This document shows positions 1-45,631 of a DNA stretch of 64,000 nucleotides, piece after piece; position 1 is the stretch's first letter; each line of letters begins with the position of its first letter. Source of the stretch: Amoebophrya sp. A120 (Eukaryota > Protista > Dinoflagellata). The stretch spans positions 773,386-837,385 of the forward strand of contig CAJINV010000016.1 of the NCBI GenBank assembly GCA_905178155.1, read 5' to 3'. Both the position numbers and the translations under genes were made by a program. The notes under the pieces are model-generated. The model was not told where the DNA came from, made no database searches, and was given only the letters and a program-made list of their open reading frames with translations.

Positions 1-3000
1 GTGCACAACGCTGCTCCCTCGTCCCGCTCGTTTGTCATGCAAAATCCACCAACGTCCACAGTAAGTTGAAGTTCATCTTGCCTTCACGGACTGTCTGCGG
101 GACAGGTTCATGAACTCTCGAAATCGTGTCCTCTTCTCACTCCGGTGCGGTCGTGCAGATTTGTCATGCAGACGAGGCTCTCTGGCGGGACGTCCTGCCC
201 GTAGATCATGCGGACGAGACCGCATGACATTCACCTTGACCGATGCTTGTGTTGCTGCTGATGCCCACCTTCAAATGGGGGGGAGTGGGGACGAGGTCGT
301 GCACTCTCATACGCAAGCCGTGCCAGCTACGAAGGGGGAGCAGCCTCAATAAACATGGATGTGGAGGGTGTCACGCGGGCGTCGGGGAACGAAGGCAGGC
401 TGGGCGCGGCGGCTTCTTTTTCTCTCGACGAGGATATGAACTGCAAAAGTATCGTACTCGTATACATGCATTGCAAATTTCCTCACCATGAGAAATGAAA
501 TCTGTCATGCTGCTTTACCCGAAGAAAAAGATTTGTAATGCAAGACTTGCAATACGAGTACGATACTTATACTTTTGCAGTGGATAGAGGAGGCAAGTAA
601 AAACGGCAGGGAGAAACTGCAGCTGCTATGATCCACAGGAATTTTTTTCCCGTAGTACACGAGGACGTACAATTACAAATGCGATTACTGCATGACAAAC
701 CTTCTCGCCGATGATCCTATTCAGCATGACAAGTGGCAGGATCTGAGTTGACAAAATTTGTGAAGCATGGTTTTGTACGTGTGCTGCGGGAAAAAATGAC
801 TTGTATTGCATAGCTGCCTTGGGTGCTCAAGATGTTGGTCCGGCGTCGTGCCTATCAAATGCAAATATGTGGTCTGGGTCCTCATCTTCTTCCCTGCGTA
901 CTAGTTGTACAAAGGTCGTTTTCTACTTCCCTTTGCTGTACTGAGGTCTTGTTTATTATGTATTCCAGACAAAGAAAAGCAAAACACCAGACATATTTGC
1001 AGTTGATAGTGCCTCGTCCGAGGACGTTCTTGGGCAGCGTCGTAGCCACCAACCTGCGGAAGTCCCGGAGGGGGCAGATGAATCTGTCCTGAACAAAAGC
1101 AAAGCCGCCGAAGCGCGTCGCGGGCGCGCAGAAGAGCAAACGGAGGTTGCTGAACTGTTGCGTGTATCAAATGTAAAAATGTCTGGGTCTGGAAAGTTGT
1201 GGTGCATGTCACTGAATAATAAGGACACTGTAATGCGCCGCCAAGCATGACAAGTTTTTTCATGCTTCTGTGTTGCGTATTCCGCATGAGAAACTGCGTG
1301 TTTGCATGACAGGCTAAGTAGAGGAGCTCTTGCTTGCCACGCAATACAGATCCCAGAGTCGTGTCAGACTAGCATGACAAATCTCGCAATCTCCCAGACC
1401 CAGACATTTTTACAATGTATAGCGTGCCGAGCGGTTTCTGACGGAGGTCGAATCTCTCACCAAGGAGTATGACCCGCTCAGACGTTACAATCTCAACTGT
1501 TACAAATACAATAGAATCTGGAAATCTGTGATGCAAGAACTGCATGATCTAGCCTACTCCCATAGGATTGCGCATGACAAGTTTCGGAGTCCCAAACCCA
1601 CCTCAAATCCGGCATAATTTGTATTTCGAAGCGCTCAATTCTCTCTGCGTTCCTCATGCTCTGTATGCAATACAATTACAAATTCCAGACTCTATTGTAA
1701 CGTTTGAGATTGTAACGTTTGAGCAGGCCATAAGGAGGAAGGCCAGCACCTCGCCCGGCCGCGGAGCCGCCCGGGTCCCTCGGCGTACGAGCAACAGTAC
1801 TTCATTCCTTTGTATAATAAGTGGACCTCTTCCATCAACAGTGCGGCCACGTCGTCGCGCGACGCAGCTAGCGGCGCTTTTCCGCCGTCGCACGGCGCTT
1901 CCTTATCAAATGTAAAAATGTCTGGGTCTGGAAGATTGCCAGGTTTGTCATGCATATTTTGAATGACCCATGATGTCTGTGATGCATGCCCTAGCATTAC
2001 AGATTTTTGGAACAATTTGCGATGCCTCTACCGCATGAGAAATGCCCTCTCCGCGTAGCTCAAACTGGAGTCCTCTTGCTGGTCATGCAATACAAATTTT
2101 TTTCGAATCCAGAGACAGCATTACAAGTTTAGAATCTTCCAGACCCAGACATTTTTACAATCCATATTCCTGCGACGCGAAACAAACGCAGCACAGCAAA
2201 CGGCTGCCCATCACTACCCATGAGTATCCTGAGTAAAAACGTACCCACACCAGAGTCAGGATGGGGATTTTGCAACACAAACCTACGAGCTTTGTGAGTC
2301 ACGCATGACAAGTTGCGCTATGCGGTGTAGTGCAGGTTAGCAAGTGCAGCCGCATCACAGATTCATCTGCTCATCCTGTTCGCAGCATCACAAAATCCAA
2401 AACACGATTGGAAATGGCTCTCATGGGGATGCGCATTACAAGTCTTCCTGTCTTTGCAAATCTGCATTACAACTCTGGTGTGGGTACGTTTTTACTCAGG
2501 ATAATGAGAAAAACTGTGTTAGTCTAGGTGTTTTATTGGGGTAAGAGCAGGACAACCTACTTCCCCTGCATAACACAGATATCCTGTCATTCACAGCTTC
2601 TACGTGAAAACACATAGGATTTCACAGTGGCTTCGGCTGGCTGGCATAGCAAGGAAGTGTAACTGTGTTGCATGCTATTTACATTTCACACAGTTCTTTT
2701 CTTGCATAATCACCGACAAACCCGTCCCCGCCAGCGTATACGCTGTTCAGCAGCAGCAGTATCTTCTGTGGCAGCAGCAAGAGCAACAGTTTTACTCGCA
2801 GCACACTGCAGCAGGAACTAGTAGTGCCAGCACTGGAGTTATGCAAAGACAAAAAGTGTTACACTTACAGTTAAGTACACACTTTGTTGCAAAACGTCAG
2901 ACAAACTTTGTCATGCGCAAAATGCTTACGAGACTTTATTTTCCATGTGTGATGGGCCTTATCATCCCCGTATTGCAACAAACTTTCTCTCTCATGCAAC

Positions 3001-6000
3001 GCAAGTTTATAATGCTGAAGCTGAACTCACTACAACGAATGTGTTGTAAAAACTGGAAGGAAACACTTTATTTTTCCTTGGATATTAGGAGTCGAGCTAC
3101 CGTACCACAGAACATCTAGTCGCGGACCAAGCGCCGGCGCTACAACCTCCAACGGCGCAGCTGCACTCGGCTTCGACATTGATATGACCTCCAGGAGCGC
3201 AGGAGCCGGAGCCCCAGGTGCAGGAGCCACTGCGAACAGCTCGGAGTTGGATAGAACTGCGACTGCTGGTGGTGGTCCCACATCAACATCTTCAACTCGA
3301 GGAAATTGTACCGACACGATGTTTGTCGCCGGGGGCCCCGCTGCTCCACATCTCGGCTATAATAATCACACCGCTTCCAGTACAAGTACTTCGCTAGTAA
3401 ACGACGGCAACCTTTACCACCGGGAAGCGGGTGGTGCAGGAGCACCTGTTTCGTCGAGCACCAATGGCCCGCAGCTACATGTACATCAACACCAGCACCG
3501 GCCCTGCGACATGGTAGATGTCAGTGACCCGATGACTTCCACGCAAGGCGTTCTTTTTGATCACGTTTCTACCTGTTCCGTTGTTGCACCACATCAAGAA
3601 TTACTCGCCCCGCACCATCACCCCTACAATACGGCTTCGACTGGTGGAGGCCGCGAGCGCGACTTTTTTGGAACAAATCTCCACCCCGCGCGGGGACGCA
3701 CCGCTGGTTCTGCGTTTGGCAATATGAACAATCATGTCGCATCTATAATTCCAGCACCAGCAGGAGCCGACTACTACACAAGAAGTTCTTGCTCTGTGGT
3801 ACACCCGAGTGCGGGCGGGACTAGTGCTGCTACTGCAACGACATCAGCAGCTTCGGCTGGTAATGCAGCGTTTCTTGGCCGCTCGTCCTCTGGCGCGGCG
3901 TACAAATACAACAATTACCCCAATCACCTGCAACCGCCGCCGCGATCATTATGAGAGTGCACAACCCCTCCTCCTCCTGATTTGTCGCGCAAGAGACCAA
4001 ATATTTTTCCAGGCTGTGGTGCCTCTTAGCACTGTGTGCATGACAAGTTCTGGCAAAATCCCAAATAGCATTACTACACTCCACGTGTGGAGATTTGTCA
4101 TGCAAAACCGGCATTGCTGCTGACGCTTGTAGTGCCGTTCATGCTATACATAGTACAAATGAGGGGAAGGGGGGGCTGTCCACTCGCATAGCGATCCGGG
4201 CGCGCCGCCGGGGACCTTCTGCGAGACCACCCATCTTCGAATCCGGCCATGGACTGGTTTTACCATCGGATTGAGGTTCTCGGCAATATGGATCGCAAAT
4301 ATGTCTGGTTCTGGAAGAATGTTGGCCGTGTTTGTCATGCATCTTTTGGATTCTGCAAATGGTCTGCCATGCACTTAAAAGCATGCCAGCTTTTGCGCAG
4401 GCCTTCTGATGCCTATCCTGCATGAAAAAATCGCGGCTTGCGTAGCAAGAAATGGGCAGGCCTTTTGGCGCTCATGCAATACAAATTTTTGTCTATTCCA
4501 TAATCCGCATCACAAGTTGCAATCTTCCAGACCCAGACATATTTGCAGCTGATAGGCAATGAGCAGCTGCAAAACTGGGATCAGGGATTCGACATCATGG
4601 AGCTCGAGCTTGAGGTTTTGAAGAAACAGAAACGAAAAGCGAGCAGTAAAGACGCAATCTCGTCGTGTGGTCCTCCTGCTGCGGAAAAAGATGACAAATC
4701 TTCTATTACAGCGACCGATGGTGCGATGACTCGGATCCATCCGTCCGCTGGCGAGGAGATGAACAAACCGCTCCAAAGTCGACGCAACGGCGAGGATGAA
4801 CTGCAAACAGGTCCTACTAGTTGTACCTCCGGAGCAAGTTCTTGCGCGGTGGAAGTAGATCAAGCTGCGAACAAAACTACTTCTACGGGGAATGCAGCTT
4901 CTACTGCGCAAAATCATTCCACCACGACCGGGTGTTCAACAACGTCCTCCTCCTCGGCGTCGTGCAGTACGGCCGGTTGTCAAACCAAGCCCACGTCTTC
5001 CACCACCACCACCACCACGACTAAAGCGGAGTTTTTATCCTGAGTAAAAATAATGTCCCCACCCCAGAGTCAAGATGGGGACTTGGACTTCGCAACACAA
5101 ACCTAGAAGCTTTGGGACTCGCGCATCACAACTTTCAGTCCGTAGCGTAGTGCAGGTTAGCAAGGACAAACGCATCACAATTCCATCTGCTTATCCTGGT
5201 TACAACATTACAAATTTTTCAAAAACACAACTAGAAATGCCTCTCATGGAGATGCGCATTACAAATGTTCTTGCTCTTGCAAATCTGCATGACAACTCTG
5301 GGAGGGGGACGCTTTTACAAATGATAGTTTTTCAAGCTCCTGCCTTTCTTGCACCGGCGGACGGAGCAGTGCGGTTTCGAGGCGCTGGACCGGTACGAGG
5401 GTAATCCGAAGCTATCGAAATGGAAAATCCCCCCTCCCCACATCAAAACGAAATTTCTGATGCCGGATTTGCGTACACAAATCAGATTTGTCTTGCAGTA
5501 GGGGACTGCAGGCCCATATCATGCCAATGTAGAGAGGTTTTCGCCTAGGCAAGTAGGATGAGGAACGTCTATGCTGTAGGCCTAATAGCATTACAAACCG
5601 CCTGCATAATGGGGTGGGGCCTATGCCGTTGCTTTCTTGCAAGACAGATTTGTGGTCACAAACACAAATCAGCATCACAAATTCTCTAAGGCGTGCCTTT
5701 TCGATTATATGGGGACGAGGGAGCATTTTTCCTCACGATAGACGCTGCAGCAGATTCGGCAGACCTACCGCATCAAGAACATTGGGGTGAACCCGCACTT
5801 TGCCCACCTGTTTCGCGATTTGGGTCTGGTAGACAACCATACCAAATGTAAAAATGTCTGGATCTGGAAACTTGTGATGCTGGGTGGCGTCTCATGGTGA
5901 GGCCACAATTGCTGGCTCAGCATGACAAGTTTCTGAGCTTCTAGGTGTTGCCTATTCTGCATGACAAACTGCGTTTCTGCATCACAGAAAAATGGAGCTC

Positions 6001-8762
6001 TTGGGTAACGTGCATGACAGATTTAAGAGTCATGCCAGACAAGCATGACAAACATACACTCTTCCAGACCCAGACATAATTTTTACAGTTGATAAGCCAG
6101 CAGATCAAGCAATTCGTCAAGAAATTCGTCAAGGATCCCGGTTTATGCATTGCAAAAGTATCGTACTAGTATAAATTGCATTACAAATTAGCCCAGCATT
6201 ACAAATTGAATTTGTATTGCTGATTTGCCTTGAGAAAGAAATTTGTAATGCATAAATGCAATTACAACTACGAGTGCGATACTTTTGCACAGGATACGGG
6301 TCCGTATGATGTGCAAATATAATGTCGGAGTCTGGAAGACTGCAAGACTTGTAATGCTCCGCTGACAGGAGAGAAAGATGTGTCATGCATGTTGCGCTAC
6401 CAGGCGAATTCTTTGTTATGCAAAAACGTAATTCCAATTTCTCATGCAGTGTACGCAAGACCTAGCCGATCAGAAACTTGTCAAGCGCGTCCCCATATTG
6501 GAGGTTGCTTTATGATTCGCAAACTGGCATCACAACTTTCCAGCCATTATATTTGCAATGCATAGTCCGGACTGATTCTGCGGAACCAGACGCGAATCTG
6601 CACGAGGGCGCAGCTGCTCCAGGCGGTCACGGGCCAGCGTTATCCTGTGCAAAAGTATCGTACTCGTATTGTAATCATGCATTACAAATCCTGTTCTTAA
6701 GGCAAACTAGCATTACAAATTTTATTTCTCATCGTGCTGAGGGAATTTGTCATGCATTTATACGAGTACGATACTTTTGCAGTTCATAAGCGCGCAACCA
6801 TGACAAATGGGGAGGAATTCGCTGGAAAGGTACGCGACATTGTATTGAGTTTACCGATGCTTGAGCCAAGAATAGGTGTCACTGCGGGGGTGTACGAAGC
6901 CCATTTTTGCTTTCGTAACGACCCTGAAGTTTTTTTTTCATCTGTGAAGTCATCTCTCCATCCCTGGCGAGCAGTTGCATTTCTTGGTTTGTGTGCTAGA
7001 CCACGCAAGTAACGAAAGCTCACTGTCACACCAAAACCACGTCAGGTTCGCATTCTCTTGTCCGTCTACGGGAGTTTTGCTCTTTATCTTGGCAAAATCT
7101 TTTCAGAAAACAATTGTGTAGAAGTTGAGTAGAAGTACATAAGTGCGTATCATTCATTGCGGACCCACTTTTTACTCCCGGCAAACCTTTGGAAATTCAA
7201 GACTTGTCATTTGACTGAAGATCATGCAAGAAGCACTTGTTTCTTGCACGTTGGTGGTTCACCATGGAGGATGACGATGAGGAATTGTATCTGGAAAAGA
7301 TTTTGCCAGGTGCATAGTTCGAAACACTTACCGCAAAAGTGGAACAAATTTTTCGGCAGCTGCAGTAGTAGTGATAGCTCCTCCACCTGTGCAGCAGCAG
7401 CAGCTTCTGCAGCTTCACCGGCCACCAGACCAGGAGCTCCTACGACAGATGTTGTTTCTGAGTCCTTTTCTGCCACCAGCACAGCTTCGTACGCCGAGGC
7501 GTTGCGACAGGTGATGGCAGAGAACGAAGAAAATGGAGGATCTTCTTCTTCTTCGTCTTCTTCTAGTCAGGATGTCGACGAACAAGTTGTGGACCAAAAG
7601 AGCAAGCTGCAGCTGCCAGTACACAACGGGATCACGACGAGTAAGAACAAAGGCGACGAAAAACAAGATCTCCTCACGAGCGGCGCAAATGAAGATACGA
7701 CTAAGTTCAACAACAAAGATGACAGCACGACGAAACAAGTTCTTTGTGCAGACCGCGACGAGTGGCAGTTTGTGAAGGCGCTGCTGGAAAAGGAGCTGCG
7801 GGGGGTGGTGAGCTAAGCAGTGCAAAAATACTTAATTGTGGGGTCGTACAACTGCTATTGCTATTGCATTAATATACAAATTTTGTCAGAAGTAGCTCTA
7901 GATGGGAACAAGATCGAGTGTGTCATGCAGATGTAGGTGAGATAGAATTAGAAAGAGATGAAACACATTCATTCTTTCACACAAACGCAATTTAGCAACT
8001 ACTAGTGCGGTCGTTGCGATACTTTTGCACAGGATACGAGGTTTATTTCCAGGCACCCGGCGTCGGGGAGTTTTGCAGATGGCAGTTCGGGTGCGGCTCG
8101 TGGGATGAAAAGGAAGACGCAGGAGAGAGTTCTTGCGGAAGAAGATGTTGCGGAAAAGGAAGACGCAAAAAGTAAACACGACGCGGGACGAAGCAAAACA
8201 CAAGTAGAAGAACATGTGAGGACCATCAACAACTCAGCAGAGGTGGTTGAGATACAGGAGCTACTTCTCGAGGAGACTGGTGCGAATAGCGTTTCAGCGG
8301 ACGCCGTATCGAATGCAAAAATGTCTGGGTCTGGAACGTAGCAATCTGCGATGCTGCCTTTGGATTCTACATCAAATCTGTATTGCATGAACAGCAAAAG
8401 AGGTCCTTTTTTTGCTACGCGGAGGGGGCATTTCTCATGCGGTATGGGCATTAGAAAGTCGTCACAAATAAATCTGTGACGCTAGGGCATGCATCACAGA
8501 CATCATCGGTCATGCAAAATGTGCATGACATTCTTCCGGACCCAGACATACTAATTTGCAATGCATACGCTGTCACGCCAGACGAAATCGAGCTGGGAAA
8601 AGAACTGCCGTGGGCAGACGAGGTATTGCAATGGTTAGAGAAGAATTAATGACGATAAAGTCCAAAGAGTACAACTTCTATTCATTTTCGTATCTGTGTT
8701 GTCTGAGCACGCAGGTAAGTAACTGCAAGAATGAATTTTTAAGCGTGCAACGAAGCTCGTGA
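1..8762 (+). CDS. Large multi-exon protein of unknown function (5'-partial), interrupted by 18 TIR introners and a few GT-AG introns
   Basis: Removing each TAT...ATA element plus one DR joins exons in frame: ...SLDEEASKNGREKLQLPWVLKMLVRRRASSED...AERFLTEVESLTKE...DWFYHRIEVLGNEQLQ...AEFFKLLPFLHRR...KFVKDPGSGLILRNQ...ELGKELPWADE. No recognisable domain; exon structure at 6830-7160 and the 3' end are uncertain. Confidence 0.7.
435..586. mobile_element. Introner family C (TIR core GCAAAAGTATCGTACTCGT)
   Basis: TAT...ATA, DR gagga/gagga. Confidence 0.85.
627..812. mobile_element. Introner, singleton TIR
   Basis: TAT...ATA, DR gctgc/gctgc, imperfect TIR ttttttcccgtagtacac/gtgtgctgcgggaaaaaa. Confidence 0.75.
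853..1008. mobile_element. Introner family A (TIR core AAAATGTCTGGGTCTGGAA), short
   Basis: DR gtgcc/gtgcc. Confidence 0.8.
1165..1421. mobile_element. Introner family A
   Basis: DR gcgtg/gcgtg. Confidence 0.9.
1468..1732. mobile_element. Introner family D (TIR TATGACCyGCTCArACGTTACAATCTCAA)
   Basis: DR aggag/aggag. Confidence 0.9.
1904..2166. mobile_element. Introner family A
   Basis: DR ttcct/ttcct. Confidence 0.9.
2225..2503. mobile_element. Introner family B (TIR TATCCTGAGTAAAAACGTACCCACACCAGAGT)
   Basis: Perfect 32-bp TIR, DR atgag/atgag; near-identical to 12131-12409. Confidence 0.92.
2840..3087. mobile_element. Degenerate introner, singleton
   Basis: DR ggagt/ggagt, right end gata-tta; removal joins ORFs in frame. 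Confidence 0.65.
3950..4190. mobile_element. Introner family E (TIR TATGArAGTGCACAACyCC)
   Basis: TAT...ATA; DR gcgat offset by 3 nt on the left. Confidence 0.75.
4287..4554. mobile_element. Introner family A
   Basis: DR ggcaa/ggcaa. Confidence 0.9.
5036..5326. mobile_element. Introner family B
   Basis: DR gtttt/gtttt. Confidence 0.85.
5413..5740. mobile_element. Introner family F (TIR core GGAAAAATCCCCCTCCC)
   Basis: DR gaagc/gacgc. Confidence 0.8.
5840..6094. mobile_element. Introner family A (TAC start)
   Basis: DR aacca/agcca; paralog of 12458 and 43522. Confidence 0.88.
6144..6296. mobile_element. Introner family C
   Basis: DR cggtt/cgggt. Confidence 0.85.
6305..6564. mobile_element. 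Introner family A, diverged
   Basis: DR gtccg/gtccg. Confidence 0.8.
6641..6788. mobile_element. Introner family C
   Basis: DR agcgt/agcgc. Confidence 0.88.
7814..8036. mobile_element. Degenerate introner family C
   Basis: Left end taagcagtgcaaaa, right end gatacttttgcacaggata, DR tgagc/cgagg; removal joins ORF 7157 to ORF 8105 in frame. Confidence 0.65.
8307..8567. mobile_element. Introner family A (reverse orientation relative to 1904)
   Basis: DR cgccg/cgctg. Confidence 0.85.
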
Positions 8763-13400: not shown

Positions 13401-16400
13401 GACGCAAAATAAAGTGGGTACTTCACCAAAGAAGTCAATAGTTTTCCCCTCCATGAGAAGCCCAGATCCGCTCGTGGCGTGCAGCTGGGTAAGTTAGTAC
13501 TTGCAAACTCGTTTTTGTTACCTGTTTCTACAACTCCAGCCTTCTCTTTGGCATTTTTTCATGCTGATGTAAGCATGCTGATGCTGCTGAAGTCCAGATC
13601 TAAAATGGCTCCTGCGACGTTTCGATCAGTTTCACAGAAATAATTTTTCCATTTTCTCGTGCAGCACATCCATGTACTAGCTAAGAAAGTCAAAAAAAGA
13701 AGGTCCCCATGAAACAAATAACGACCACCAGGCCTCCTCACCCCTGACCCTAGTCGCCGTGGTCGGGTCCGCCGGCCTGGCGTTCCTCGTCAATTTGAGC
13801 ATTTTCCTGGTCATTGGAAAAACCGATGCGGTTAGCTACAATGTTCTCGGACACGCTAAATTGTGTTGTATTCTGATCTCCGGGTACCTAGTTTTCGGCG
13901 AGACGGCAACCTGGAAAAATTTGGCCGGGGTTGGACTCGCGGTTTGCGGTATCGTCACCTACACGCATATATCAAATGTAAAAATGTCTGGGTCTAGAAG
14001 ATTCTGAGACTTGTCATGCATGTTTTGCATGACCCAGGACGTCTGTAATGCACGCCCTAGCATCACAGATTTTTAGAGGGCTTCCTGATGCCTACTCCGC
14101 ATGACAAACGTCCTCCCCGCGTAGCACAATATGGGTAAAACACACGGAAAAGGAAGAGGCTACGACGGTAACAGTGGAGGAATGGAAAGGGAAAGAAGCA
14201 CACATGGCAACAATTGAAACGAGGCAGGACCACCTAAAGACAGAAGCTAGGGCAGAAGAGCGCAAATTCGTAGCGTATTGCAATAGCGCCATAAGAGCGA
14301 TAGAGATGGCGAAGAAGCAGCAACGCGAAGGGAGTGGAGGGGTGTGCGTGTGTTTGCTGGATTGCGATGAGATGAAAGAGAAAACGCGGGGGCTCCTGCG
14401 GAAGGAGCAAGGGATAGCGCTAGAGCTGCAGGAGGAAATAGAAAAAGCAGAGAAACAGAGCCCGGGCTTAATAATAGCCAGGCGCTGGGGGAAGCAGAAC
14501 GCGCCCAAAACCCTCGCAAAGAGAGAAGCACAAGGGGGCTATACAGAAGTGATACCCCTGAAGGTGGCAAACGTATCGAAGCACGATGACGAATATTCCG
14601 AATGGGTGCAGTACGACTTCAGTGCAAAAAATGTACCGACAAAACCGATCTGGGAATGGCCGGAAATGTCAAAAATAGAAAGACAAGTGCGCATCTACCG
14701 AAAGATAATAAGAGATGAGAAGAAAGAAGGGCAGATAACGGAGAAGGGAAGTGGTGGCGGCGAGGATGACAGAAGGAAAGGCAGCACAAGAGAGAGGAAG
14801 GGGAAGGGGGCAAGTAGCAGCGCGAAGGGAAACCCTCACCGCGGAGAAGGCCCCAAGGGGAACACTGCTCCAACAGACATGAACAGGGAGACAGACAGCG
14901 GGTCACTAGCGGAAACAATCAGAAAAATGGTAGAAGGGGAAAAGATAAGAGCACACAAAGAAGGAAGCGAAATGCTGCAGAGGGCGCTGGACATAATAGG
15001 AAGGGGCACAGACCTACTAGAAACAGCTGAAGACGTTCCACAAGAATCCCGCGCGACGTCGAGCAGCAGTACTAGGAGAGGCGTGCTGGAAGTAACAGAA
15101 GAGCGAAATGATTCACAAAAAGAAGAAAAGCGTGAAGAAGAAGAAGAAGCGTGCTTCTACTCGGCGCGGGAGTATCAGGGAAGCCGTCCAGGATACGCAT
15201 TCAAACTTGGGCGCTTCGGTATGGGGTATCATAAGGATCAAGGACCGGAGGAGGCAACGCGGGAAATGTTCCAAAAAATTACAATAGGGGGGCTAGGAGG
15301 CAAACTGCCCAAGAGGGAAGCCGCGAAAGAACAGAAAACAACGAGCAAAGAAATCGCAGAAGCTGCGACGCGACACGATAAGAAGACGCAGCAAGTGAGC
15401 CAAGTGCCGGAGGAGGGGGAGGAAAGAAACAAAAGCGACACCAAGAGAAGCAGCCGAGCCAGGCGGAGAGGGGGGATTTGGAGGACTGAGACAGAAAATC
15501 GCCCAAGATAAAAGCGAAACAGAGATGGTGAAAGAAGTTAAAAAGGAAGAAAAAAAATTCCCAACGCTGAAGGAGCTGAACGAGAGAGACCGGAAGCGGG
15601 ACCGCGAGGAGGCAACGGAGCGGGAGGAGGAGCGCAAGCGGCAGGAGGAAAGGAGATCTGTGAAAAGAATGAAATATGAAAACCCATTACAAGAAGAGTT
15701 AGCCAAGATGTATAGGGACAAGCACTGAGAAACAATGACGAAGGAAATATATTAAAAAAGAAAGAGAACAGAGAACGAAACAAAACGACGCGAAATGGGG
15801 GCGCAGTGTTCTGGGTGTCGGCGGAGGGAAGAGGAAACAGAGGAAAGAAAAAGAAAGAGAAGAAAGAAAGTGGTCCCTTTGGTTGTCTCAGCTAGCCCGC
15901 AAGGGCTCCGCTCCCGCTAGCTGAAAAGCACGGCGCTGCTAATCATCTCGTCCTCGCCAGCCGGTAGGCACGGCGCTGCTATCCTGTCGTCGTCATTGCG
16001 TCTTTTTTACTAGCGAGTGGAAACAGGGTTGCTAAGTCAAAGACTGCGCTAAGGCAGCGCCCCCCCTTCCCCAAGGGGTCCCCCCGGGGCGGGCGCGGTG
16101 GCGGCTCTGCCAACGCGGAGCTTCAAAGTCCGACTCTACCTATGCGTATACAAAGGGTGCGCGGAAATAGGTCGGTAAAGTGCTTGAAAGGGGCATGCTT
16201 TGGGGTTGCCCGTCATCGTGATAGGGTCAACGTGTGTGACCAATAGACCCCCTGTATATCTAGCGCGCAACCGCAGCAGCGTTCAAAGTTTGTAAGAATA
16301 ACCCAACAAGGCAACGCTGGAGCTCCACCTTGCTCGCGGGCTTGGATGGTAAATCAGGTCAGCCACATCTAGCGCCCACTGGCCGTGCACGCGTAAGAAA

Positions 16401-16745
16401 TCGGAAACGGTTCGGCGGATGCGGTCGGGTGGTGCCTGTAGGACGTGGAACGGGTGTCCACCTAGGGTATTGGCAGAGGCTAGATCTGTTCTAGCGCCAC
16501 GGTATTGGCAGAGGCTAAATCTGTTCTAGCGCCACCCTGACAGGAGTCAAATGTCAAAGCGATACGATACGCGTAGCACGAACTAGACTCCTGGCTCTTG
16601 CTGGTCATGCAATACAGATTTTTTTAGAGTCCAAAGTTAGTATCACAAGTTCCAATCTTCCAGACCCAGACACTTTTGCATTTGATAGCATCTAAAGATA
16701 ACCGCCGGGCAGAGCGCTGCGACGGCGGGGAAGAAGGGAAAGTGA
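10471..16745 (+). CDS. SLC35E3: Nucleotide-sugar / TPT-family transporter, SLC35E3-like
   Basis: Spliced translation: YMSLNFAVSVLIVWVNKFAFQQGFRWNISLTTLHFLFT...[35 protein letters not shown]...STSFYQIWVK...APQLLYNQS...AFLVNLSIFLVIGKTDAVSYNVLGHAKLC...YTH(L/I)KITAG...KKGK*. Six introners; the start and first exons are less certain. Confidence 0.85.
10661..10918. mobile_element. Introner family A
   Basis: DR atctt/atctt; interior is the reverse complement of 56886-57143. Confidence 0.9.
11252..11513. mobile_element. Introner family A
   Basis: DR gattg/gattg. Confidence 0.9.
11556..11740. mobile_element. Highly degenerate introner
   Basis: TAT...ATA, DR ttccg/cgccg; removal gives GFRWNISLTTLHF. 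Confidence 0.65.
12131..12409. mobile_element. Introner family B
   Basis: DR ctgca/ctgca; splits NLSLQ|YN. Confidence 0.92.
12458..12709. mobile_element. Introner family A (TAC start)
   Basis: DR taacc/taacc; splits KVLT|TP. Confidence 0.92.
14129..15511 (+). CDS. 5'-truncated purine-rich ORF carried by the nested element
   Basis: The frame is open from the insertion boundary to TAA at 15511; Lys/Glu/Arg rich; contains FYSAREYQGSRPGYAFKLGRFGMGYHKD. No RT or transposase motif seen. Confidence 0.55.
   Translation: MWVKHTEKEEATTVTVEEWKGKEAHMATIETRQDHLKTEARAEERKFVAYCNSAIRAIEMAKKQQREGSGGVCVCLLDCDEMKEKTRGLLRKEQGIALELQEEIEKAEKQSPGLIIARRWGKQNAPKTLAKREAQGGYTEVIPLKVANVSKHDDEYSEWVQYDFSAKNVPTKPIWEWPEMSKIERQVRIYRKIIRDEKKEGQITEKGSGGGEDDRRKGSTRERKGKGASSSAKGNPHRGEGPKGNTAPTDMNRETDSGSLAETIRKMVEGEKIRAHKEGSEMLQRALDIIGRGTDLLETAEDVPQESRATSSSSTRRGVLEVTEERNDSQKEEKREEEEEACFYSAREYQGSRPGYAFKLGRFGMGYHKDQGPEEATREMFQKITIGGLGGKLPKREAAKEQKTTSKEIAEAATRHDKKTQQVSQVPEEGEERNKSDTKRSSRARRRGGIWRTETENRPR
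16466..16535. repeat. 35-bp tandem duplication
   Basis: ggtattggcagaggctaratctgttctagcgccac x2. Confidence 0.9.
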
Positions 16746-18391: not shown

Positions 18392-19520
18392 ATATCCTAG
18401 ATGCAGCTCGAAGATCATGAGCATGCGGGACACATCATAAACGACAAATTTTTCCGCCTGACAAGAATTGCACGAAGTCAAGAGCAGCACACTGTAACTG
18501 TTTCAAGCAGCTGTCAGAAATAATTCAGTAGGCGCAATAGCGAAGCATAAGCAGATAATGACTCTGACATCTTGTGGCCATGTGTGCAGTGTCTCGGGAC
18601 GGCTCTACTACTGCATAGGTCTAAGCAGATGTGCCCCAGTATGCTGCCGATGTTGTTCCCATGAATTGCCGCCCTTCATCATGATCATCATCATGTGATT
18701 TATTTCGGAAGTAGGTTCGTCAACTGTCTCTGTCTCCCAGCGGTTTTTTTGCCTGAGAAAGGAGTTATAACTAGACATCCATCGTGTACTAGTAAACCAG
18801 AAAGTGAAACGTCGACATTGCAAGTTTGTACTGAGAATTGCCGAAAACCGTAAGGAAGAACTTCGTACACCATCCGACGACAAGCCCCGAAATTGTCCGT
18901 CTAAAAAGATCGGTGAACTTGAGTCTGTCATCGGTTCGTTTTTTCTGCCAGAAAAAGTAGAATCAGAGCCTACCAGCCGTGCACCTGCTCGTTCAAGAAA
19001 GTGACATCAAGAAAAATCCTCGTGACCACCTAGAAAACGATCGGTTTCGTTTTTTCTGCAGCTCGAATTATGACGAAAAGCCTTCAGAATCAGAACAAAT
19101 TGAGTGCGTAAAAAATAAAGAGGTAGATGACATCGGTTCGTTTTTTTCTGCCAAGTATCACGTGAAGAATGAAGATGAATCTCAAAGGTGTATGGAAAGA
19201 CACACAAGTACCAGCCTCGTACGTACATGATACAACAACCCGATTATAGTGCCATCTGTAAAATAAATCACATTCATAATTTGTCCTCCACTACATAACA
19301 GTCCCTCCTGCGGATAATTCTACTCCAGAATTCCCCCACTAGATTACTTAGGTGTAGTAGTACTCCTGCTCAGCTGGATTGCTGAATTACAGCAACCGTC
19401 GTGACTTGTACAAAAACAAGTTTACTTTTTCCAAGTGACAAAACCATAGCACAAGCTAGAGCATAAAGTTGCAGTAGCACTTTTAGAAGCTTCGATCGAA
19501 AAGAAAAAAAACTCGAAAAA

Positions 19521-22500: not shown

Positions 22501-23329
22501 ACGGCAAGCCCATGGTGCTCTTCGGACCCTATGCCGGCTTTTCGCCACGGTATGTTTACTACATTTTTGTTCTACTTGGCTATGGATGCGTGCTGCTGTG
22601 TGTGTGTTGCATGACTTTTGTCCTTATTTCTCATAGACCACAGCTCCATCGTGTTAATAAAGAGTTACTTCCATCAATTTGCAGGTACCTGAAGACCGGT
22701 TCTTTGACCGATATGTTTTCCACCCTGCGTCCGCACAACATCCTCCCCATGGCCGCCGCGGGCCTGCAGAACTTGGACTTGACGCTGTACCTGATCAAGG
22801 AACTCATGGCCTCCAAGGAGAAGAAGCTCCAGGCTCTGAAGGAGTTCATTCCGGACGCGCGGGCGGAGGACTGGACCATTGTCACCGCGGGGCAGCGTGT
22901 GCAGGTCATGAAGGCCGACGCAAAAAAGATAGGTACTTACTACTATTTGAGGTGTGATGTATCTTGTCATGCATGAAAACAAAGCGTACAAACAAGTAGT
23001 CGTAGTACACGAAGATGATTTCTTGTATAGCTCCTCTACAACGGTGGTGAAACTTCTGCGAAAATAACTGTACAGGTATTCTGCAGTTTGGCACCGAGGT
23101 GGTGGCCTCCGCCGACGGAACCATTGCGGGCTTACTCGGCGCTTCTCCCGGTGCGTCGGTGTCAACCCAAGTGGGCGTCGACGTTTTGTTGGGCTGCTTC
23201 CCGGACCGGGTGGCCGCCTGGACCCCGAAGTTTAAGCAGATGATTCCGTCCTTCGGCACCGAGCTCAGCTCGAACCCGGCCATGGCAGAAAAGATCATGG
23301 AGGCCAATGCCCGGATCTTGAAAATCTAA
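19521..23329 (+). CDS. mqo: Malate:quinone oxidoreductase (FAD-dependent, bacterial Mqo type)
   Basis: Motifs [100 protein letters not shown]. Five introners plus GT-AG introns. Confidence 0.95.
20016..20297. mobile_element. Introner family B
   Basis: DR gccca/gccca. Confidence 0.9.
20374..20704. mobile_element. Introner family G (TIR TATGGmGTTCTCAAmTGTTACATT) with a 78-bp nested insert
   Basis: DR acgcg/acgcg; splits WNNA|GTGH. Confidence 0.9.
20965..21226. mobile_element. Introner family A
   Basis: DR agccc/agttc; splits KEP|LF. Confidence 0.88.
21283..21491. mobile_element. TIR element at the donor site of a GT-AG intron
   Basis: tatccaagcaaaaaac...gttttttttcttggata, DR agtat/agtat. 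Confidence 0.8.
22180..22388. mobile_element. Introner family H (TIR core GAAAAAACTGTTTCACyGTGA)
   Basis: DR ttggt/ttggt. Confidence 0.9.
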
Positions 23330-24650
23330 TTTATTTCTACTGCGGTTTACTACTAGAGGATAATAAAGTAGTAGTCATAGGGAATGTTATGAATAGGAAG
23401 CACATGATTTGTTTCTTGTCAAAACAAGAATCTTCGGTTTCTCTTTCTGTAGTTTCATCAACAAAACGATAACGTAAAAGCAACAAGCAGTAGTGTCAGA
23501 ATCTTCTCGAAAAATCTATGCAGATATAGTATACCTGCGCACGACCACGACGAAAAAATATATGTACGATCGACTCTAACTAATTTTTGCGGTTTGTGAC
23601 GAGTGGTCACTCACAATCAACTAAGTTTCAAGCTAAGCGGCAACGGTTGCAGCCCCTGCACAGATGAGACCTGATTTAGGACAGCAAAAAACCTGGCTCA
23701 CAACCGAAATTCTGTAGGCTACTGAATCGTTTTTACTACAGGATGAAATGAAATGGACAGGAGCATTCTACATATTCTATTCAATCACACATGTTTTTGC
23801 AATATCTATTCTCTTCTTATCCGTATGCTGGTTCTATTGAACAATAATCTATCAAGCCCCTGTAACTCTATATGAAACCAGACGACACATCAATCTGCAG
23901 CAGAGTTGACCGCACTTTCTTGCCGCGCAATTATTTGCGCGGCAGGAATTTTGACGAAATCTCTGCTGCAAAAGCCCCCAAGTACCCTCTTCCTATGCCC
24001 AAACCTAACGAGGGTTGTCGCGGTCTGCACAGTAGACCGTAGGTTCGTCATCTTTTTATTTCGTCGTTTGCTTCATCACACACTTTTTTTACCATTTTTA
24101 ATATTCTGTGCGCCGTTACTAGTACAGCGACGAGCAAGGTCTTTAATAGTTTCCCCAAGTTTATTTGCTCTAGGGAGGTTAATACGGGAGTGGCAAAGAC
24201 TTCATAGTTTCTCCTCGAGGTTACGCTCTAGGAGGATGCGATATCACACGGGAAAAAAAAGATACTCTCTGCAGTAGACGTCTAAGGTGCTTCTAGAGGT
24301 CAAGCAGATTGTTTGTTGGCAGAAGATGAAAAAACAACTTGTTTCAAGCTCTTTTTCTCGGGAAAGAATGGTAAGAAAAAGCGAAAATAAACCCTCAGCA
24401 CTCGGCGATTTCGTACGCCGACGGTGGGGAACCAACCAAGACCTCGAGGTTTCCTGCTCGCGGGCAGCCGGTGGAGAAATAAATGTTCGTTGTCCTGTCA
24501 TGAAGATTAAGTACATTCAACGGTGTCGCAGTCTCAATATGCTCTTTCGCCGGACGTTCTTTTTGGCGGTTACTTTTCGTGGCAGGGGCCAATAACAAAG
24601 CTGATGTAGTTCCACAAGAAAGATAAATTCGTGACCAACAACATCAAAAA

Positions 24651-26632: not shown

Positions 26633-29600
26633 ATGGCTCCAGGAGCGGGCGCGTCTTCCTCCTCTTCCTCGACGAAGCAGATGTCGAGTACGGCTTTGGA
26701 GGTGGAATTTTGGAAGTTTCTTGCCGGTGATACCGTTTCCCTGAAGCAGAAAATCCCCGATGTGGCCATTTTCACCAAGCGGTTCCACTTCGAGGGGCAC
26801 TACCACAGCACGAAGACGGGGCTGTTGGCGAAGAAGCCCAACGCCACCGTGGATTCGTTTCTCGCCCGCGTGCTGGATATCGCCCAGGAACGGCACACGG
26901 CAAAAAACCAGCCGTTCGGCAGTCACACGCCGGCCGCCATTTTGCGGAAGGTCGCCCCGGTGGCCGGAGCGAAAGACAAAGAGGGGTGTCCGGTGGCGGT
27001 CATACTCACCTCGTCGGAACTCTCGCAAATCATCCAGCAAATAAAAAACAAGTCCTTTGACGACTGCGATGTACTGATTTGTACGTAGGATAGCCTTCCG
27101 TAGTACGTGGCTTGTTTCGGTTTCATGTTGAGAATGCGTGTACGTACTAATTTTTGCTACATATTTTTACTGCTGGACTAACATTGACACACGACATCGG
27201 TCTCGATCTCCATCTAACAGGTATTCAGCATCCAGGCGATTGTCGAGCCGTTCGAAGACCAGAGAATAGTGTCTGTCTACAGCTGCGATCTGATGGGTGA
27301 GGAGCGGTCGGACATCTTTGGCCGGACGTTCCAGAAAGTTTATCCAATCGAGCAGGGAAAACCAATAGAAATACAAACGCCGCAGGACGTTGCGATGGAC
27401 AAGTAGAATGATTGAGAAACCTAAATTTCGTTTAGTGCTTCTTTTTGCATCAGGACATCTATTAGCATACAGTATGCTATCATCATTCCTCTGCGAGCGA
27501 GTATACTTTCTGGTCCTTGCTTCTTCTTCAAAAATCTTCAACGACGTAATAATCTACGAATCACTTCCAGGTGCGAGCAGATTTTTCCGGCCCGCCGTGC
27601 GCTCGTGGAGTCAAAAACGCTCGCCTTGGTCCGGTACGCGAGGAGATTTTACGAAATTGCACTGGACGGATTTATATCAAATGTAAAAATGTCTGGGTCT
27701 GGAAGATTGGAACTTGTAATGCTGGTCTTGCATTCCTGTGAAATCTGTATTGCGTGACCATCAAGAACAGTGGTAGCCTCTTCTGTCATACAAAAACGCA
27801 GTTTCTCATGCGGAGTTCGTATGAGCAAGCGTGCTGCAGCCTCGTCATGCTTTCCTGCATGAGCAAGTGACTTCCTCTTGCACATTTTAGCATCACAAAT
27901 TTCCAGACCCAGACATTTTTACATTTGATAGTTTATCGCCGAGTGGCTCGTGGACAAGAATGACCAGCTGGTTTTGCACGGCTTCTGGTCCGCGACGGTC
28001 TACAAGGGAACCTTGATCCCAGCGGATCCGGGGAAGAAGTTGCAGGACCGACCGGGGCCGGCGAAGGCTTACCCTTTCCCGACAGACGTGAAGTCCATGT
28101 CACTGCCGGAGTATAGATTGCAAGTCTTTGGTTTATTTGCGAAAGAACTTTATTTGCGTGATGATCATTCTGCATGGCAAAGTCGGTTTTGTATGGTCTC
28201 TGCGCATGACAAGTTGTGAGAACTACAAAGTTCTTCTACGCCACTGCAGGTACCGATACGACCCCAACACCACAAAAGCACACGCGACCATGGAGGAATA
28301 TGGCGTTCTCAACTGTTACATTCTCAGCTGTTACATGAATTTTTTGTCATGCAGAACAACCATCGAGATCCACACAAGAAAGCTGCTTCGCATGACAAAT
28401 TTGCGAAGGGCTAAACAGCACCTAAATCTGTGCAGGACTTGTAATGCTAGAGGTGCAACCTCCCCCCTTTCACTTTTGCAATTCTTGCATCACAAATTCA
28501 TGTAACAGTTGAGAATGTAACAGTTGAGAACGCCATAAGGAAGAAATCAAGAAGAAAAAGCTCGGACAGAAAGAAGTTGACGAGTTGGTCGACCGGATTG
28601 TCGGGAGAAAACGCGGCGAGGAACCGCAAATCCTGCTGGAAGCCTGGAGCGACGACGATTATTTAGGCGAGGTGGTGTTGCCGCAGTTGTCCAACCTAGA
28701 AGCAGTCAAGGGACTGAAAAGCTACGAAATCGGGCGTCCGAACCAGAAAACCACACGGCTGGACGGAAAGAAAACCAGATTCATGAATGACAGCACGGTA
28801 CAAGTTGATGGATTTTGTCATCAGCGAATTCTTGTTTTCTCCTAGGTGGAATCTGCTCGATCATTACATGTGACATTTGCACCGGGGACCACGAAGGTAC
28901 TAGTCTTTTTTTTCATTCTGCACGACCGCATGACAAAATGGCCAATTTATATATAATTTATTTCTATCTCAGGTAACTCTCGAATTGAAGTGGCAGGGCA
29001 ACGGGGAGCCCTTCGCAAACGAACTGCGCATTTTACTTTCCCACGGGCAGTTTGCCATGCCCTGCAACCCGAGGATACAGCTGTGGCTGCGCTACGAAGA
29101 GGAATATTCCCCGCTGTGGACGAGTCAGGTGCACAAACAAACCGCGTTTCCGCAGTTTAAGGAGCAGGCAGATCTTATCAAATGGAAAAATGTCTGGGTC
29201 TGGAAGATTCTGACACTTGTCATGCACGTTTTGCATGAGCCATGATGTCTGTGATGCATACCCTAGCAATACAGATTTTTTGAGAGCTTCTCGATGCCTA
29301 TTCCGCATGACAAATGCCTTCTCAGCGTAGCCAACATTTGCCCACGCAGAGCCGTCCTCTTGCCGGACACAACCAACATCTGTCCGAAACAGCCTAGGGC
29401 CAAGACGACACCGTGAGGACGACCACAGGGGGTCCGTCTCAATGATGATGATGATGTAGCAAAAATTGCATTCCCTTTGGTACTCATGCAACACTCGATT
29501 TTTTTGGAATCCAGATGCAGCATCACAAGTTGCATTCTTCCAGACCCAGACATTTTTACATTTGATAGATCTGAAGATAGATTTTAGCAGTGGCGACGAC

Positions 29601-42800: not shown

Positions 42801-45631
42801 ATCCCCCCTCCCCAAATATCGAAAAGGCGTGCTGTTCAAAATTTGTGATGCTGACTTGTGGTCACAAATCGAGTCTGTCTTGCGAGAGAGCAAAGCCAGG
42901 GCCTCCGCTGCATTTCGCGGGCGATTTGTAATGCTGCTACGCTACTAGGGCAGACGTCTGCCATGCTAAGTGCTTACCCCAAGCCACCCCCTTCCGGGCT
43001 TTGTATCTGTCTGCAGTCCTCTACCGCAACACAATTCTGATTTGTGTACCCAAATCCTGCATCACAGATTTCCATTTCGATATGGGGAGGGGGCATTTTT
43101 CCTTTTGATACGATCTTGATTTGGTTTGCGACGCTGAACCACATGCTGTGCTTTCTGGCGGACAAGTATTTGTTACTTCGGGTGTCCAAACGGCCGCCGG
43201 CATATTATGAAATGTAAAAATGTCTGGGTCTGGAAGAGTGCGAGGTTTGTCATGCACGTTTTGCATGAGCCATGATGTCTGTGATGCATACCTTAGCAAT
43301 ACAGATCTTTTGAAGGCTTCTTGATGCCTATTCCGCATGACAAATGCCTTCTCAGTGTAGCAAAAATTGCATTCCCTTTGGTACTCATGCAATACAGATT
43401 TTTTTGGAATCCAAATGCAGCATCACAAGTTGCATTCTTCCAGACCCAGACATTTTTACATTTGATACATATGACGAGCAGGTGATTAAGGACGCGATTG
43501 GAATCGTGCCGTATGCGCTGCTATCAAGTGTAAAAATGTCTGGGTCTGGAAACTTGTGATGCTGAGTGGCGTCTCATGATGAGGCTACAAATGCTGGCTC
43601 AGCATGACAAGTTTCTGAGCTCCTAGGTGTTGCCTATTCTGCATGACAGACTGCGCTTCTGCATCACAGAAAAACGGAGCTCTTGGGCAACGTGCATGAC
43701 AGATTTAAGAGTCATGCCAGACAAGCCTGACAAACGTGAATTCCAGACCCAGACATTTTTACATTTGATAGCTGTTGCTGCACGTATGGGATGGGTGAAA
43801 GAGGTTTTATCGTATTGGAACTTCGTCTTTGCATAGAAGGGAGGCCTGGAGGTTGTTTTTAGCATGACGAACTCGCCTCTGCCGCAGCTATGTACGAACA
43901 GGTATTTTCATTTTTACAGTGAACAAGCACGTCGACTGCACATGCATGACTCTGCAATGCGATACTAGTTTGCACTCCATACCACGCCATTGTCGGGATT
44001 TGGATGTTGGGAAATGTGGAAGTGTTTCCCTCAGAGGAATTTATCGAGATGACGGTGCCCCAGGACGCACCGAAAGCCTTCCGACCACTGTTGACGCTGG
44101 TATAGATGCATTCACTTCTACTTGATCCGGAGTGCTACTTTGTAAGTACGCGGTTTGGAGCATGACAAACGTGCTTTGTTTTGCTAATTTCCGCATGACA
44201 AAAAACAATTCAGATCGACCGCAGTTTGGTTGCCGCCGGCGTCCCCTACTTCCTTCTCCTCTTGGCTCTCCTCTTCTTCGTCGCGATCGAAATCCTGAAG
44301 CTCTTTCTCGGGCGCGCGTTCGACGCAGTGGGGAGCTGCCTGTTCAAGTGCTGCTGCAACAATAAAGTGACGAGGAGCAGTATCGAGGAAAAAAGCTGTG
44401 TAAGTGTAACTTTGTACGCTTTGCCTTACAGGGAAAAGCTGTCATGCGCAGCTACTACGTTGAAACACGTATGAAGTAGCCTATGACGCAGATTCAGCAT
44501 GACACGTGTAATAGTTTTGCATTTTCTGCATCACAGACTTACACTCACATAGTCTTTTTCTGGCATAAGTAGCCTGAACTTCGTGGATCTGGACGCTTTA
44601 TCCCCCTCCATGGTCCACGCCGAGGACAAAACGAACTACCGCGACGCGCAGCAAGAGTGGCGGGCGCAGAAGATCTGCGCGTCTTATTTCCTGATCGATA
44701 ACGAGAAGTACGAGTTTATGCGGACCGCGGACGTCGACCTGCGCACCTTCGTGTCCCGCGGCGAGGTTTCGCGAAAGAAATCCTCCGCCCACAGCCTCCA
44801 CAGCAGTGTTAAAACGAGTGTTAAAAGCGAGGGCGAGGCGAAGCAGGGGGAGGAAGTGGTTGTTTCCGAAGGGAACATATCAAATGCAAAAATGTCTGGG
44901 TCTGGAAGATTGCCAGGTTTGTCATGCATTTTTTGCATGATGCCTGACGCCTGTAATGCATGACCTAGCACCACAGATTTTTAGAGGCCCTCCTGATGCC
45001 TAATCCGCATGAGAAATAGCCTCTACTCCGCGTAGCACAAACTGGACTCACTTTGCTGGTCATGCAATACAGTTTTTTTTGGAATCCAAAGACAGCATTA
45101 CAAGTTGCAATCTTCCAGACCCAGACATTTTTGCAATCCATAGAACAATGACGGAGACGCCACGCCGCTGAAAGTGTCCTCTGTCGGTGACTATCAAATG
45201 CAAAAATGTCTGGGTCTGGAAACTTGTGATGCAAATCTACGAATTGTGGGCGCACTGCAGTATGCATCCAAGCATGAGAAGTTATTGCGCTGCTGTGTGT
45301 TTCGTTTATCGCATGACAAACTGCGTTTTTGCATGACAGGTAAGAGGCCCTTTTCCTGCTCATGCATCACAGATGTAAGAGTCATCCCAGACAAGCACGA
45401 CAAACTTGCATTCTTCCAGACCCAGACATATTTGCTATGCATAGTGACCCGACGAGTCCCAGCAAGCAACCCGGAGCGCTGAATGTCGGCGATGAAAAGC
45501 GGACCGGCGCGGACAGGGATAATGCGGATCGGTACTCGTATGCAGATGGGGTTGAGGGTTGGGTCAAGAGCATGAGAATTTGTGTTGCATCGATCGATGT
45601 GCATATGGAGAGTTTGCGATTTGGACAGTAG
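36841..45631 (+). CDS. OSCA/TMEM63 (CSC1)-like multi-pass ion channel; 13 introners
   Basis: GIELYFQFL, TVTPANFTVLVDQLP, APEPSNILWENQ, FVALFLNTA, DFDHVWFATVG, FELAPRTGALLNTLYSTLVFAAGCPIL, DKYLLLRVSKRPPAYD, reassembled after element+DR removal. The 3' end is uncertain. Confidence 0.8.
37112..37369. mobile_element. Introner family E, diverged
   Basis: DR caccg/cacca. Confidence 0.8.
37649..37911. mobile_element. Introner family D
   Basis: DR ccctc/ccctc. Confidence 0.9.
38089..38495 (+). repeat. Tandem duplication of intron 3' part plus exon start
   Basis: gatgacttttat...ccctctctcag|gyatcgagctgtattttcagttyct occurs twice (from ~38090 and ~38335). Confidence 0.85.
38496..39585. mobile_element. 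Long (1090 bp) TIR introner with a GC/G-tract-rich interior
   Basis: ~60-bp TIR tatggcgatggcagaaactttttgc..., DR tttct/tttct; splits YFQFL|HYG. Confidence 0.9.
40232..40477. mobile_element. Introner family A
   Basis: DR cgaag/cgcag. Confidence 0.85.
41613..41787. mobile_element. Introner family C, diverged
   Basis: DR tctca/tctca. Confidence 0.8.
41914..42720. mobile_element. Introner family A with a 525-bp nested insert
   Basis: DR ccgcg/ccgcg. Confidence 0.88.
42131..42655. mobile_element. Nested insertion with 15-bp TSD
   Basis: TSD ttttagatgcagaga (42116-42130 / 42656-42670); internal 18-bp tandem repeat; TTTAGGG-like end. Confidence 0.75.
42787..43110. mobile_element. Introner family F
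   Basis: DR cgatc/cgatc. Confidence 0.9.
43206..43467. mobile_element. Introner family A
   Basis: DR catat/catat. Confidence 0.9.
43522..43770. mobile_element. Introner family A
   Basis: DR gctgc/gctgt. Confidence 0.9.
43785..43981. mobile_element. Degenerate introner
   Basis: tatggga...ctccata, DR gcacg/ccacg; removal gives LLH|AIVGIWMLGN. Confidence 0.65.
44381..44567. mobile_element. Introner, singleton
   Basis: DR agcag/agtag, imperfect TIR. Confidence 0.7.
44878..45142. mobile_element. Introner family A
   Basis: DR gaaca/gaaca. Confidence 0.9.
45192..45443. mobile_element. Introner family A
   Basis: DR gtgac/gtgac. Confidence 0.9.

Follow-up and report, generated by a model that had tools for sequence, protein, structure and literature searches.

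The introners described from the dinoflagellate Amoebophrya sp. A120 are non-canonical introns of about 240 nt, with short direct repeats and inverted repeats composed of TAT, seven variable bases, and an A run (Farhat et al., 2021, PMC7789003). According to the same report, canonical introns make up 35% of A120 introns, and introns at positions shared between strains, nearly all of them canonical, represent approximately 19% of the total. Farhat et al. reported no transposase from A120 and detected U1 in neither A25 nor A120; the genome paper left open how introners, tens of thousands in number, are copied without a known transposase and spliced without GT-AG (PMC7789003). Among the rows listed in Dataset S7 of a later study, TIR families measure 148, 209, 252-260, 278, and 305-320 bp, and family 38 is annotated with "5-bp TSD, TA/TA termini" (Gozashti et al., 2025, PMC12130899). 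The window analyzed here, a contiguous stretch of 64,000 nt, contains elements that resemble these introners in their terminal rule, short direct repeats, and TIR family lengths.

The interior of these elements invites comparison with other mobile DNA. In the P element, the TIR is separated by 9 and 21 bp from internal 10-bp sites (PMC7776569), and both the P element and piggyBac/piggyBat (PMC11707139) carry short repeated internal sites, apart from the TIR and at set distances specific to each end, as is the case here. Unlike those arrays, a single motif is found here across families with differing TIR bodies; its sites fill the whole element and also occur as pairs in single-copy GT-AG introns, and no cognate enzyme was found. 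The TA…TA termini of IS3EU/GingerRoot and the 5-bp duplication of Tdd-4 and Tdd-5 (Ginger2/Tdd) are likewise as here (PMC10045372, PMC6839031, PMC2836005). However, the IS3EU/GingerRoot duplication is 6 bp, whereas that of the present elements is 5 bp directly at the element ends, and Ginger ends read TGTNR, unlike TA…TA. In the text of the A120 introner publications, terminal motifs alone are described; the internal word GCATNACAR is a feature of the elements in the present window. "GCAT" occurs 0 times in the text of the Farhat supplement, GCATGACA occurs 0 times in 12 of the 14 Gozashti supplement files, and the literature searched yielded no description of the internal motif, which figures or subscription papers could hold. 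The carriers are known; what appears to be unreported is the code in their interior with its rule of spacing, the occurrence of that code in predicted ordinary introns, and a fixed splice register.

The six-copy array and its carrier elements

The array lies in a 279-bp element that is itself nested in an older one. Their features are as follows.

2225..2503, no strand assigned: 279-bp non-coding TAT…ATA element, an A120-type introner carrying all six sites
2225-2255 and 2473-2503: perfect 31-bp TIRs of this element, starting with TAT
2220..2224, plus strand: 5-bp target duplication, left copy (ATGAG)
2504..2508, plus strand: 5-bp target duplication, right copy (ATGAG)
2272..2280, plus strand: site 1, GCAACACAA, one mismatch; inward-facing, centred 52 nt inside the left end
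2303..2311, plus strand: site 2, GCATGACAA, 31 bp from site 1
2352..2360, plus strand: site 3, GCATCACAG
2385..2393, plus strand: site 4, GCATCACAA, 33 bp from site 3
2433..2441, plus strand: site 5, GCATTACAA
2464..2472, plus strand: site 6, GCATTACAA, 31 bp from site 5; outward-facing, centred 36 nt inside the right end
2215..2708, no strand assigned: older TA…ATA outer element, flanked on the left (2210-2214) and on the right (2709-2713) by its target duplication ATCAC

The initial annotation had listed six same-strand copies starting at 2272, 2303, 2352, 2385, 2433, and 2464, spaced 31/49/33/48/31, and this description is exact. It had also stated that the sequence between motifs diverges; indeed, the spacers in 2272-2472 are mutually no more alike than shuffles. 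The A at position 4 of site 1 is a regular variant, with a share of 23% in the PWM. Insertion of the 279-bp element into the left TIR of the outer element broke that TIR after 10 nt. Relatives of the 279-bp element begin at 5036, 12131, 20016, and 58485 (five copies in total within the window), and its superfamily has 42 members in the sample described below. An Rfam search of the window gave no match.

To enlarge the set of elements, the TIR pattern of one family was run on a metagenome assembly of a related organism, which returned at least 145 loci (559 kb); the family that supplied the pattern is over-represented among them as a result. The window and the fetched loci together provided 448 elements, 443 of them simple, which form 126 clusters at 80% identity and 31 superfamilies at 60%; 47 elements in the window passed the filter. 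Elements of this kind crowd the window and account for the majority of its introns. All 62 of the element ends aligned carry TAT (the ends having been picked by a TAT search) and are A-rich at positions 11-15, so that the published A120 rule of TAT, seven variable bases, and then at least three A describes the carrier-type ends. When ends were set by family alignment with no duplication filter, an exact 5-bp target duplication was found in 337 of 473 cases and one with a single mismatch in a further 85. The carrier-type element thus has the published 3-5-nt direct repeat at the exon/intron border, and it is repeated, non-coding, and cut from mRNA at non-GT-AG junctions, as introners are. The carriers are therefore already known introners, matching the published Amoebophrya A120 elements, and their ends point to a genome of the A120 type.

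Several longer elements depart from this pattern. A 1090-bp TATG…CATA element at 38496-39585 has a perfect 5-bp duplication, an imperfect TIR of approximately 108 bp, and central G/C-run hairpins; it lacks a long ORF, none of its motif scores exceeds 7.1, and no copy was found among the sampled loci. Another, at 13970-16686, is split by an A-rich insertion of approximately 2.4 kb that harbors a 468-codon open frame (14105-15511), for which a Pfam scan gave no hit. The elements 41914-42720 and L051:5001-5972 were lengthened by insertions flanked by direct repeats of roughly 15-18 nt, and the insertion in the former contains TTTAGGG-like text.

Conservation, placement, and spacing of the nine-letter word

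In the window, GCATNACAR matches 183 times, against a shuffle mean of 5.18 and a largest shuffle of 11; the N base over these matches is G in 95, C in 51, T in 36, and A in 1. The assertion that nearly every element bears the word also holds, with at least one strict copy in 427 of the 443 non-nested sampled elements and 26 of the 31 superfamilies represented. The top gapped 8-mer in the sampled elements, GCATNACA, was found in 113 of the 126 cluster representatives, and the profile fitted to element sites reads GCA(T/A)(G/C/T)ACA(A/G)(A/G). The motif is real and far above chance.

Conservation by column, which the initial annotation had put forward as a check, was examined in 13 family alignments (families of at least eight members). 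Mismatch per cell is 0.041 in the motif core, 0.143 in the flanks, and 0.153 at the N position; the core is thus 3.5 times more conserved than its flanks, and the N column varies as the flanks do. For alleles common to several copies the core rate is 0.24 of the flank rate, compared with 0.69 for single alleles, and private changes in sites occur at 0.43-0.85 of the flank rate, comparable with TIR positions 17-30 (0.49-0.83). The depletion of shared alleles exceeds that of private changes, which points to selection between copying lineages. An age-increment test for decay after insertion gave a core/flank ratio of 0.5, with a 95% interval of 0.15-2.0 that includes both neutral and selected decay. 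When the flanks of 300 sampled sites were compared with other superfamilies, 24.75 of 40 positions matched, against approximately 20 of 40 for shuffled or random intron flanks; the families thus share some ancestry or mosaic parts. Calling them unrelated, as had been done, is therefore too strong, although their TIR bodies do differ. Because the TIR bodies differ between families, the motif may be the shared copying signal of introners.

The sites are not scattered evenly. Element ends are nearly free of site weight within 33 nt, except for TIR-internal look-alikes near position 9. Measured from the element end, outward-facing sites peak at 36-37 and 44-48 nt and inward-facing sites at 50-53 nt. 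Same-strand pairs at 31-33 bp reach a superfamily-weighted count of 24.0, against a null of 4.0±1.5 (maximum 9.1 in 500 runs), and are present in 20 of the 31 superfamilies; the excess agrees with the expectation that spacing is not random. Opposite-strand pairs peak at 15-17 and 48-50 bp. The period of approximately 80 bp noted earlier exists in the family of 2225-2503, where it is composed of 31 and 49 bp, but does not extend to a general rule, the weighted same-strand count being 0.7 at 80 bp and 3.5 at 83 bp. The sampled pair spacings also rule out an 80-bp or nucleosome-turn period as a general rule. The 31-33-bp peak could be read as three helical turns, although a Fourier test of first-site distances showed weak phasing (R about 0.32 at 10.5 bp and 0.31 at 16 bp). 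Taken as a subterminal array, the sites are repeated, lie at fixed distances from the ends, and are more conserved than their flanks; they are not confined to the elements, being found also in predicted GT-AG introns that lack TIRs.

Splice register and strand of the sites

Splicing was followed through contigs of runs X3, X5, and X6, which are RNA-like, their RNA nature having been guessed by a tool; contigs of run X1 read into the elements. Among the 15 of 41 joints listed, RNA-like contigs (X3, X6) skip a GT-AG intron and, in each case together with one copy of the duplication, the nested composite, a twin pair, and a further 11 single elements. The nested composite, 499 nt long, is skipped as one unit, giving an intron at 2214-2712 in the common register, and the skip follows the ends of the outer element although its left TIR is broken. 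All 12 single non-canonical joints examined, 11 of them from this listing, fit one register, in which the intron begins one base before TA and closes four bases past the final TA, that is, N|TA…TA-NNNN|. By comparison, the legend of Fig. 3 in Farhat et al. describes splice sites that vary relative to the hairpin. Joints fitting the register lie at 1903-8571 and 48796-49075 in the window, and the clearest belongs to the following intron.

7084..7320, plus strand: control non-canonical intron, unambiguous N|TAT…ATA-NNNN| junction, no motif site scoring at least 8.5

The splice register is set by the TAT/ATA ends together with the target duplication. In this register an AG-G target yields a GT…AG intron, which suggests that the spliceosome kept the geometry and dropped the G and AG requirements; among young elements, AG-G targets are not preferred (7 of 254). 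In 6143-6568, adjacent elements are separated by a predicted 3-nt micro-exon (6301-6303), and a contig joint agrees.

The orientation of the sites has no counterpart in the direction of transcription. A strand classifier, correct for 17 of 18 loci in leave-one-out, gave a strand call for 313 of the 443 elements, in which sites reading GCATNACA number 861 sense and 848 antisense, in a mirror pattern. Of 23 families tested, one showed a lean of 10 to 2 (p=0.04); in its superfamily, which also includes 2225-2503, predicted exon junctions place 16 elements in sense and 12 in antisense orientation. RNA-like contigs skip the all-plus element 5036-5326, and the all-minus element 56886-57143 is removed along with three neighbours, as judged from piece lengths (1044 nt minus 892 leaves 152 nt in the contig); both are thus removed from plus-strand genes. 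The site-free element 7084-7320 is skipped as well, so that the motif is not in every spliced non-canonical intron. Being strand-blind and dispensable in this element, the motif is not a needed RNA splicing signal, and the suggestion of a splicing factor acting on RNA is not supported. The word had also been proposed as the true recognition signal of the system; as far as splicing is concerned, that role falls to the TAT/ATA ends, which splicing tracks instead. Any action of the motif would be on DNA in double-stranded form, and splicing can do without it. The fixed register separates the splicing signal, at the ends, from the internal code.

Sites in predicted ordinary introns and a candidate binding protein

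A simple gene finder, run on 54 of 60 strand-called sequences (six overlapping loci were left out), predicted 184 GT-AG introns, of which 75 were kept as 45-260 nt long and free of introner homology. The finder is crude: of the exons that RNA defines in the first gene, it found many but missed some. Intron boundaries are backed by RNA-like joints in that gene and by Pfam continuity in the Mqo gene and in the adaptin gene of locus L027, the others being predictions only. Host genes and three site-bearing introns of the window are listed here.

19490-23329, plus strand: malate:quinone oxidoreductase (Mqo) host gene
24627-25718, plus strand: aldose 1-epimerase host gene
32427-34553, plus strand: tubulin-family GTPase domain host gene
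49028-49843, plus strand: signal peptidase S26 host gene
22933..23075, plus strand: predicted GT-AG intron of Mqo, no TIR; TTGTCATGC at 22964-22972, centred 36 nt downstream of the 5' splice site
28111..28249, plus strand: predicted GT-AG intron, no TIR; 32-bp same-strand pair of GCATGGCAA then GCATGACAA at 28204
44100..44213, plus strand: predicted GT-AG intron, no TIR; GCATGACAA at 44160 and 44193, 33 bp apart

The exons flanking 22933-23075 match positions 322-402 and 406-489 of the Mqo profile. In L027, an adaptin N gene, four predicted GT-AG introns have strong sites, two of them as 31- and 35-bp pairs. The predicted GT-AG introns of the window and loci tend towards T-rich 5' ends and A/C-rich 3' ends, with no pyrimidine tract.

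Among the 75 TIR-less introns, 21 have strong sites, 29 altogether, where shuffles give 1.7; exons are at background (12 vs 11.3). The remaining 54 introns have no strong site, and any host role is therefore optional. Site density is 16.1 per kb in elements and 2.3 in GT-AG introns. The top word in these introns is again GCATNACA, with N=G in 16 of 19 cases, mostly GCATGACA and on both strands, so that the sites are sharper than those of elements. Pairs at 30-35 bp number 6 against 0.48 expected. Sites avoid the intron ends (3 of 29 within 27 nt, 9.1 expected), and 15 of 29 lie 33-50 nt from splice sites (7.8 expected, p=0.003). A second set of 26 longer introns contains 8 sites against 1.1 expected. 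For sites outside elements, a donor-distance test gave 8 of 53 against a background of 3.9%; the corresponding acceptor-distance test showed no excess (6 of 51, background 9.5%). Donors are mostly GTAT or GTAC (46 of 75), both of which the starting model favoured.

The preferred explanation, which we hold with about even confidence, is that one protein, likely kept by the host, binds the sites on double-stranded DNA in pairs, and that introner lineages have been selected to keep the sites since binding helps copying. The protein would bind in pairs, on a single face of the DNA and at a distance of three helical turns, and in introners could serve as a subterminal end-organiser for a cut-and-paste enzyme of the integrase type, a mover suggested by the TA…TA ends and the 5-bp duplication. 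Lineages retaining the sites would spread, and single inserted copies would slowly lose them. The protein may be host-encoded and possibly a domesticated transposase. The best version of the motif is also present in predicted ordinary introns, and the protein is thus likely to be kept by the host; between a transposase and a host chromatin factor, both named in the initial annotation, the sites in TIR-less GT-AG introns tip the balance towards a host-kept protein. The idea of a binding-site code for one protein is supported in that the word is enriched, its columns are conserved, element ends are avoided, and the spacing is fixed, but without its RNA splicing-factor option; none of the outcomes that the initial annotation had named as refuting it was observed. 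Against the preferred explanation stands the element at 38496-39585, with its intact duplication and its lack of sites above 7.1. More speculatively, and in our view unlikely, the sites could form an intron code written in DNA: one host protein on paired GCATGACA, three helical turns apart and approximately 35-50 bases inside intron ends, would be hijacked by introners bearing seven times more sites, with copying coupled to intron definition, GT-AG relaxed, and U1 seemingly lost.

A rather unlikely alternative is that the sites are subterminal sites of the elements' own transposase, in the style of P, hAT, or piggyBac. Those in GT-AG introns would then serve no host role and be left over from introners that are old or were not sampled. 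The fixed end distance, the mirror symmetry, and the occurrence of one motif under differing TIR bodies all suit such an enzyme, as do the stronger depletion of shared than of private alleles and the precedent of the P-element internal sites. Aged non-canonical introns with TIR remnants, such as 37111-37373 and 7084-7320, have lost strong sites and kept their ends, and GTAT/GTAC donors would result from N|TAT with G as the first base, with the caveat on the starting model given above. The ratio of one-mismatch to zero-mismatch excess in GT-AG introns, about 2.0, also fits mild neutral decay of 15-20%. However, Farhat et al. found no transposase in A120, and several results tell against relics: end complementarity of site-bearing GT-AG introns is 7.79 against a null of 7.83, ATA at -7..-5 occurs in 0 of 75, and site flanks match introners at 20.3 of 40 positions (shuffles 19.9), whereas elements mutated by 35% still give 23.5. 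The greater sharpness of the intron sites also argues against relics, as does a neutral-decay simulation matched to 0.39 sites per intron, which placed pairs in 0.6% of introns when 6 of 72, about 13 times as many, were seen.

Less probable still is a marker of introns at the DNA level, whereby a chromatin protein some 35-50 nt inside each splice site would aid co-transcriptional intron definition where U1 is seemingly absent, and introners would carry many sites because they lack GT-AG. The clustering 33-50 nt from splice sites, the background level in exons, the density in elements relative to GT-AG introns, and the failure to detect U1 (PMC7789003) are consistent with it, but two introns devoid of sites, one non-canonical and one GT-AG, are skipped, most predicted GT-AG introns have no strong site, and sites tolerate private mutations to about the same degree as the TIR body does. 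That the motif acts instead in pre-mRNA, as a branch point, a site for an RNA-binding protein, or a pairing stem, is very improbable: outward sites at both ends are complementary and could pair, and the folded intron 2214-2712 is stable (z -6.5), though its long stem is the TIR, and the absence of strand bias and the removal of all-plus and all-minus elements alike from plus-strand genes speak against it. Scarcely credible, finally, is a functionless remnant of a unit repeated in the common ancestor of the families; the partial sharing of flanks across superfamilies would fit, but a core so much better conserved than its flanks, around an N position that varies like them, would not, nor would the presence of sites in single-copy introns.

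For the preferred host-kept protein, the shared internal site and its spacing rule offer direct bait, and the motif in ordinary introns suggests that the elements exploit a host DNA-binding system, or donated one. Searches for a transposase, an integrase, or a motif-binding family gave 0 hits in 85 of 199 ORFs of at least 200 aa (about 0.6 Mb), and the nine listed elements longer than 420 bp contain no long ORF. The apicomplexan ApiAP2 site TGCATGCA (PMC4117751) shares a TGCATG core with the most frequent form of the motif, TGCATGACA, and AP2 domains reportedly occur on integrases and endonucleases of mobile elements. This likeness is a lead only, TGCATGCA itself not being enriched (0 vs 0.6 in GT-AG introns and 0 vs 4.6 in elements). 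In viral contigs, the TIR pattern had 0 matches, and the pair pattern occurred at 109 loci, 75 of them with the two matched copies alone and none with more than 8 copies. Three viral contigs, L155, L197, and L203, have 7-8 motif copies within about 4 kb, which may be coding repeats.
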